From a virus (Duplodnaviria; Caudoviricetes): a stretch of DNA of 38,217 nt. The stretch is from the IMG/VR virus record IMGVR_UViG_3300037692_000549, positions 1-38,217 of that record, one strand, 5' to 3'. The position numbers were made by a program, and so were the translations under genes. A model generated the notes under the pieces. The model was not told where the DNA came from and did no database searches. It saw only the letters and a program-made list of their open reading frames with translations. Positions 4,167 to 4,231 of the stretch are shown one piece after another (positions within the stretch are counted from its first letter, which is position 1; each line of letters begins with the position of its first letter).

Positions 4167-4231
4167 CTATTCGCATAATCGCAGTCATAAATTTCGGCAC
4201 TGGCAATTTCATTTAAAGAAATTTGTTTACT
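4167..4231 (-). ncRNA. 65-nt coreless group I-like mini-intron in MCP
   Basis: Exon ends in U, insert ends in G; IGS GCCAGU-G-CCGAAA (4204-4192) pairs with the 5' exon UUUCGGU (U.G wobble) and the 3' exon ACUGGC; no P3-P8. Confidence 0.82.

Follow-up and report, generated by a model that had tools for sequence, protein, structure and literature searches.

Judged by analogy of form, the nearest anatomy to the element described here is that of the small 'degenerate' group I introns in fungal SSU rDNA, namely PaSSU of Phialophora and those of Arthonia and Porpidia (PMC3160393). In the available part of that report, these introns have a P1, a P10 and a middle segment which pairs with the 3' exon, all of which recur in the phage insert discussed below, together with a P7, a terminal U, a location in SSU rRNA and self-splicing aided by the flanking rRNA; that part of the account proposes no helper intron (PMC3160393). 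The phage inserts, in contrast, have no P7, end in G, occupy many mRNA sites and appear to be directed at a neighbouring intron.

Euglena group III introns and twintrons are reduced descendants of self-splicing introns which need outside help. They are group II-derived, use lariat chemistry and are nested, whereas the phage pairs lie side by side. Among phages, exon skipping is reported for a three-intron gene of Twort. Group I introns of the ordinary phage kind, to which the proposed helper belongs, follow the same splice-site rules, occur several per gene and carry endonucleases in their loops, but each has its own core, whereas one core would here serve two or more introns. Genes with multiple group I introns are reported in the Bastillevirinae (PMC11878797) and as capsid genes of crAss-like phages (PMC7886860), as far as the accessible portions of those papers extend. 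Among engineered RNAs, spliceozymes and IGS-less Azoarcus ribozymes provide cases of a coreless intron removed by a group I core, or of a core which takes an external guide (accessible parts of PMC4094466 and PMC2709566). These systems are artificial and act in trans, and the spliceozyme itself recognizes the splice sites (available text of PMC4094466); the phage inserts differ in bearing the guide on a natural substrate and an address helix in cis. By analogy, the engineered spliceozymes suggest that such chemistry is possible. In collaborative or trans homing, an ORF-less intron spreads by means of another element's endonuclease (PMC3984707, in the part available). There the dependence is for DNA mobility, whereas that proposed for the phage inserts is for RNA catalysis, and two coreless phage inserts encode an endonuclease of their own. 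No element of this type is described in the accessible main text of four papers (PMC11878797, PMC3984707, PMC7886860 and PMC3590771), and the full-text literature searched, a scope outside which most subscription papers fall, yielded no case in nature of a coreless group I intron that a neighbour splices; the suggestion that a helper/satellite pair is undescribed in phages holds for that literature.

The window, that is the whole stretch of 38,217 nt analyzed, is a 38-kb phage contig with a terminase and a P22-like portal; relatives of this phage were binned with unrelated taxa. Its major capsid protein is encoded on the minus strand in three exons: exon 1 (4232..4495), which ends in ...AQMAFFG and probably starts with MSVTTT at 4495; the 39-nt exon 2 (4128..4166; TGCIINEQVILQD); and exon 3 (2638..3312), which runs from QEGVLAW... 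to the stop. Between exon 1, ending in ...UUUUUCGGU, and the ACUGGC downstream lies the 65-nt insert (4167..4231, minus strand, terminal G at 4167) which a previous sequence-only reading had described as breaking the capsid frame. This proved correct, since QMAFFG-TGCIINEQVILQD-QEG or a near variant is unbroken in 69 of 80 related loci, fixing the edges of the insert and both splice junctions. An uninterrupted relative (L002) matches PHROG 1357, a major head protein (E 2e-15). Just 5' of the capsid start, a near-perfect 30-bp palindrome occupies positions 4538-4569, to which short high-depth contigs of other runs also map. A promoter scan gave results at chance level.

U4232 marks the 5' splice site, and positions 4232-4238 form the 5' strand of the P1 helix of this mini-intron. 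The internal guide (4192..4204, minus strand) comprises a P10 strand (4204-4199), which pairs with exon 2 at 4166-4161, a wobble G (4198) and a P1 strand (4197-4192). This 13-mer, GCCAGU-G-CCGAAA, occurs once in the window, and its chance within 65 nt is 8e-7 under uniform composition or 1.3e-7 under that of the insert (about 1e-7 to 1e-6); the guide described earlier, the reverse complement of the spliced junction save for one A-to-G change, is present. In partition-function folding, the 7-bp P1 with its U·G, which covaries among relatives, has a probability of 1.00, and the AAUUUC/GAAAUU stem in the P1 loop (4205..4223, minus strand), a variable region absent from many relatives, one of 0.74-1.0; both had been proposed beforehand. 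With the 6-bp P10 and terminal G4167, the splice-site features of group I introns are present. After the guide, only a 25-nt tail follows, in which there is no P3-P9 core with a P7 G-site and no match to the core profile or P7 motif introduced below, in agreement with the earlier statement that the insert has no room for a core. Because no core was found, the insert is not classed among group I introns; its sequence suggests a function akin to that of such an intron's substrate half. A UAU-GCGA-AUA sequence, read earlier as a GNRA hairpin, is indeed there, but its predicted formation probability is 0.0 because its bases pair with exon 2, and its candidacy as a P9 mimic was dropped.

To place the insert among its relatives, 369 capsid loci were gathered and insertions were located with a spliced aligner whose training set was 56 uninterrupted genes, with 18-nt C-terminal gaps disregarded. 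Four capsid sites proved to hold 147 distinct coreless inserts (120 at FFG|TG, 11 within TGCI, 14 at QEG|V and 2 at RLA|V), with a further eight in portal genes; such inserts were absent from 80 terminase loci. A mis-aligned FFG|TG insert (L273) was excluded from the 147 and entered by hand in the co-occurrence table, while L302, whose P1 was mis-parsed, was left out of the covariation and folding counts. The terminal G of the inserts is partly imposed, being required by the search patterns and favoured by the aligner. One exon-2 pattern, which required only exon 2 after a non-glycine G, had 38 matches, 37 of them inserts of 29-79 nt and one a 712-nt full intron. In all 147 inserts the U·G P1 has 6 bp or more, and in 138 the P10 has 4 bp or more; the nine with fewer than four consecutive P10 pairs count as evidence against the scheme. 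At FFG|TG (n=119), the U·G is present in 119/119, position -3 of P1 is Watson-Crick in 119/119 (C-G 104, U-A 15; shuffled mean 93, maximum 101) and position +2 of P10 is paired in 117/119, by four pair types (shuffled mean 58); these shuffles take no account of relatedness, but 51 changes among the 156 rows of the tree show the carriers to be scattered. The guide thus tracks synonymous exon changes, the IGS covariation for which a check had been proposed.

Among the short inserts, none of 145 matched a core profile built from 14 of the core-bearing long introns, compared with 205 of 211 long ones; regex core searches had been too strict (38/116) and were superseded by this profile. The P7 pair GACU(A/G)...(U/C)AGUC is likewise found in 0/147. 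These counts bear on whether the insert is a minimal self-splicing ribozyme, as has been claimed for the fungal PaSSU intron. PaSSU-type introns measure 63-75 nt and one is reported to splice in vitro (available part of PMC3160393). Such a ribozyme is highly improbable here, given the missing P7 pair, lengths down to 29 nt, tails which mostly measure 12-19 nt, and the observation that no insert was seen without a downstream full intron.

The reading frame is broken by all 145 short inserts, 111 by shifting it and the 34 of 3n length by a stop in every case, and removal of the inserts leaves a stop-free ORF in 178 of 183 phages. A 3n+2 length rule drawn from the first eight cases failed (77/34/34 by frame). 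Ribosomes might instead hop or shift frame across the insert, splicing never occurring; a U-rich run at the end of exon 1 and bypass-like hairpin inserts in portal genes of this phage group would suit that account. We find it scarcely credible: bypass elements of the T4 gene 60 type have take-off and landing codons that match, but a glycine codon matching the take-off GGU ends 0/120 FFG|TG inserts; insert lengths are spread over the three frames, a shift to the -1 frame in the window meets UAG at once, and P10 covariation would not be needed. It is just as hard to believe that the insert is a dead remnant of defective phages or an assembly error, a reading already largely refuted. The capsid protein does lack a match in cultured phages (50,697 records), which would fit it, but inserts occur in 28 of 122 unselected phages, scattered on the tree and with intact exons, and show compensatory changes. 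Moreover, contigs of three further DNA runs (X2, X3 and X4; run X1 was left out of this count) span the insert without any difference, which settles the earlier concern over assembly. The insert-free junction is absent from eight runs which, being of DNA only, are silent on splicing.

The window's remaining intron (3313..4127, minus strand; 815 nt) is a full group I intron, the sole core in the window and the proposed helper. The 5' strand of its P1 is exon 2 4135-4128 and its guide is 4114-4107, while its core consists of P3 (4102-4096/3433-3427), P4 (4088-4085/4054-4051), P6 (4050-4047/3450-3447) and P7 (3444-3438/3387-3382). P3 is paired at 7/7 and P7 at 5/5 positions, with the P7 bulge and G-C G-site there, and the P1, P3, P4, P6, P7 and terminal-G features of a group I intron are all found; the intact core reported earlier at 39 nt downstream is thus borne out. 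Since Rfam left the helper and its ORF-less relatives unmatched (window plus seven related loci), its group I identity rests on the structure tests of this analysis. In an alignment of 14 ORF-less relatives, the pairing of P4, P6 and P7 is 100%, both strands having changed, a covariation equalled in 0/500 shuffles; for P3 the figure is only 76%. P1 leads directly into P3 through a 4-5-nt AU-rich link in most helpers, and the address helix described below, together with the helper P1, could therefore take the place that P2-type spacers have in other group I introns. An antisense ORF of 189 aa (3469..4038, plus strand) in the helper P6 loop resembles a single-motif LAGLIDADG endonuclease (PF00961, E 4e-4, just below the curated cut-off) and also matches phrog_5046, labelled HNH endonuclease. 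The capsid-sense strand across this gene (3469-4038) is stop-free for 211 codons.

Among 183 distinct phages spanning the region, a full group I intron lies 24-168 nt downstream of the insert in 87/87 carriers. When only the 122 distinct phages not selected for the insert are considered, a full intron is present within the next ~170 nt in 28/28 carriers versus 11/94 non-carriers (Fisher 6e-19). Independent tree pairs on supported branches fall 17 to 0 (p about 1.5e-5), in a test on a tree of 156 of the 183 rows, among them selected loci. Upstream introns are not linked to inserts (5/28 vs 12/91), and far-downstream introns are somewhat enriched with them (7/23 vs 9/86). For truncated loci among the 147, a helper was assigned where the exon alignment ended at a known helper site plus guide. 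Viewed from the other side, introns at +26, +32, +39 and +102 always accompany an upstream coreless insert (41/41, 3/3, 20/20 and 18/18, respectively; 8/8, 1/1, 5/5 and 6/6 in unselected phages). No full intron was seen at these positions of the capsid model (269, 275, 282 and 345) without the insert, so that the dependence may be mutual. The dependence on the neighbouring ribozyme which had been proposed for this locus hence finds comparative support, but the single helper/satellite pair then envisaged gives way to a large family.

Co-occurrence by itself could come from joint homing rather than from catalysis. One might then suppose that a host or phage protein, either an endonuclease plus ligase or a maturase alone, removes the insert while the neighbour is a fellow traveller. 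Many helpers encode LAGLIDADG-like proteins, and mini and helper seem to travel as one block. Even so, we hold this to be very unlikely, as the U·G, P10 and terminal G are substrates of a group I core, many helpers are ORF-less (196-280 nt), and a protein route leaves the tie between the address and the helper P1 unexplained.

This tie is a novel feature of the present analysis: the 3' half of the insert is predicted to hold an 'address' strand which pairs with the exon beside the neighbour's P1. In the window, the predicted address (4181..4189, minus strand) has its partner at exon 2 4146-4137 and ends 1 nt from the neighbour's P1, and a predicted clamp strand (4173..4180, minus strand) has its partner at exon 2 4159-4152, leaving the 3' splice site in a loop. 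Unconstrained folding returns, in order, the mini P1, a 2-nt link, a long helix that joins the 3' half of the insert to exon 2, another link of 1 nt and the helper P1 (z -3.36). Throughout the relatives, it is the beginning of the tail that pairs with the exon just 5' of the helper P1, up to 96-168 nt off, and these pairings show compensatory changes; in the +26 class, eight positions of the address helix are paired in 67/67, compensatory changes included. An insert's own helper site was the best among at least four candidate sites of the same gene in 91/105 inserts. The window insert is one of the 14 misses of this strict ungapped test (site 329, -8.8 kcal/mol, vs own site, -6.1 kcal/mol), as are all four scored members of the +32 class, in which about 5 nt separate the end of the address from the helper P1. 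All three helices appear at p>0.5 in 131/140 inserts under unconstrained folding. RNAalifold, applied to 24 MAFFT-aligned +39-class loci, recovered only the two P1 helices and not the address helix; in this class the address register differs between sequences, and single-sequence folding finds the helix in 30/31.

The same three-helix fold is predicted for the portal-gene inserts in 8/8 (L371, L374 and L375 being one case). Satellite-plus-helper pairs occupy four sites at the 5' end of that gene (L380, L411, L423, L405, L401, L404 and L371), and in L401 and L404, which have a common mini site and different helpers, the address switches accordingly. Two tandem pairs are present in the portal genes of L380 and L411. 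The helper at L371:6375-6612 apparently lacks the U at its 5' splice site (exon end ...GCAGGG), yet a satellite is present upstream. Distinct from the satellite introns are candidate translational-bypass inserts in the portal gene after EQS/AR (L370:4608-4665, L378:3018-3058, L410:5385-5440 and L421:4734-4783). These are about 35-54 nt, form one long GC-rich hairpin with an in-frame stop, follow a CGG codon, with a CGN codon next in three of the four, and have neither a U·G guide nor a following intron. In capsid genes, L096, L101, L104, L108, L117, L099 and L302 each contain two serial satellite-plus-helper pairs, which fit within ~100 nt of coding sequence, while the close capsid relatives L116 and L364 have a common 799-nt helper at one site and satellites at different sites.

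Comparison among these relatives indicates that the insert must be removed and that it is tied to the position of its neighbour. Our preferred reading, to which we assign a probability of roughly 0.8, is that it is a non-autonomous satellite intron excised in cis by the neighbour's core. As judged from sequence and covariation, the insert provides substrate parts of its own, namely the U·G P1, the P10 strand and the terminal G, and has no P3-P9 core. The predicted chain runs from the mini P1 through a 2-nt link to the address helix, and thence through a 1-nt link to the helper P1 and a 4-5-nt AU-rich link to P3. By analogy with established group I chemistry, the mini P1 would dock into the core, taking the place of the helper P1; free guanosine would cut after U4232; G4167 would occupy the P7 site while P10 aligned exon 2, and the exons would be joined. 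The helper would then self-splice, an order suggested because the tether requires the helper to be in the transcript still.

The sequence-only reading had left removal in cis and removal after helper excision side by side. As the predicted address helix would tether the mini P1 beside the helper P1, the former is favoured and the latter disfavoured. The group I cores of Tetrahymena and sunY can use a P1 supplied in trans in vitro. An excised linear helper, or some other intron core, could by extension splice the insert in trans after the helper's exit, and group I cores do act on separate substrates in vitro (accessible parts of PMC4094466 and PMC2709566). We nonetheless consider this route very unlikely. 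The address pairs with the exon beside the helper P1 rather than with the intron, and follows the helper's position, so that it would be useful only with the helper in the same RNA; in addition, the helper is always downstream, at no more than 168 nt, in 87/87.

As to the origin of the cis-spliced satellites, a full intron at FFG|TG may have lost or relocated its core, with the pair now homing as one block. At FFG|TG, L081, L257 and L316 have introns which bear a core and the same guide; in L257 and L316 no further intron lies nearby, and L257 has the loop motif of the long minis; with these full-length introns and the uninterrupted genes, the suggested comparison of related capsid genes was productive. 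L081, in which two full introns lie 27 nt apart with near-identical 5' cores (96% over 80 nt), is a plausible intermediate. Origin by simple inverted duplication was rejected because the guide precedes the address, the opposite order to that of a reversed exon copy. The empty L031 and L300, which has mini and helper, differ mainly at model positions 100-400, as would be expected of a co-conversion tract.

Members of one endonuclease family occur in the full intron at FFG|TG and in helpers of the +26 and +96 sites, with up to 92% identity between sites. FFG|TG is the only site filled in all 14 cases of this family, and the mini may therefore shield the endonuclease target. The idea that the helper endonuclease targets the mini's site fits this family of 14, fails in a second family, of 7, in which L181 is without a mini, and gives an ambiguous picture for the family of the window. 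Two coreless inserts, L190:1573-2546 (974 nt) and L360:1813-2765 (953 nt), have an endonuclease ORF in the P1 loop, a two-repeat LAGLIDADG-like protein of ~290 aa, with guide and address in the final ~30 nt and a helper 54 nt (L190) or 38 nt (L360) downstream. Such inserts would supply mobility and borrow catalysis.

The element is real and widespread in this phage group, and its mechanism is strongly implied by comparison. We think it rather probable that the inserts constitute a natural class of mobile, non-autonomous satellite introns, coreless modules which dock on a neighbour's ribozyme by means of a re-programmable address helix, with one core splicing several introns per transcript; new sites would have been the scene of repeated origins, in two genes or more, some inserts having their own homing endonuclease gene and some maybe kept by shielding the target of the helper's endonuclease. 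The more than 150 natural variants yield design rules for guide, address and link lengths. If the reading is true, inserts of 29-104 nt in phage genes which resemble frameshift errors can be real introns. It would also provide a natural case of an intron divided between a catalyst and a distinct substrate devoid of catalytic function, a split often proposed for the origin of spliceosomal introns and, for group I, known in the literature searched only from engineered RNAs.
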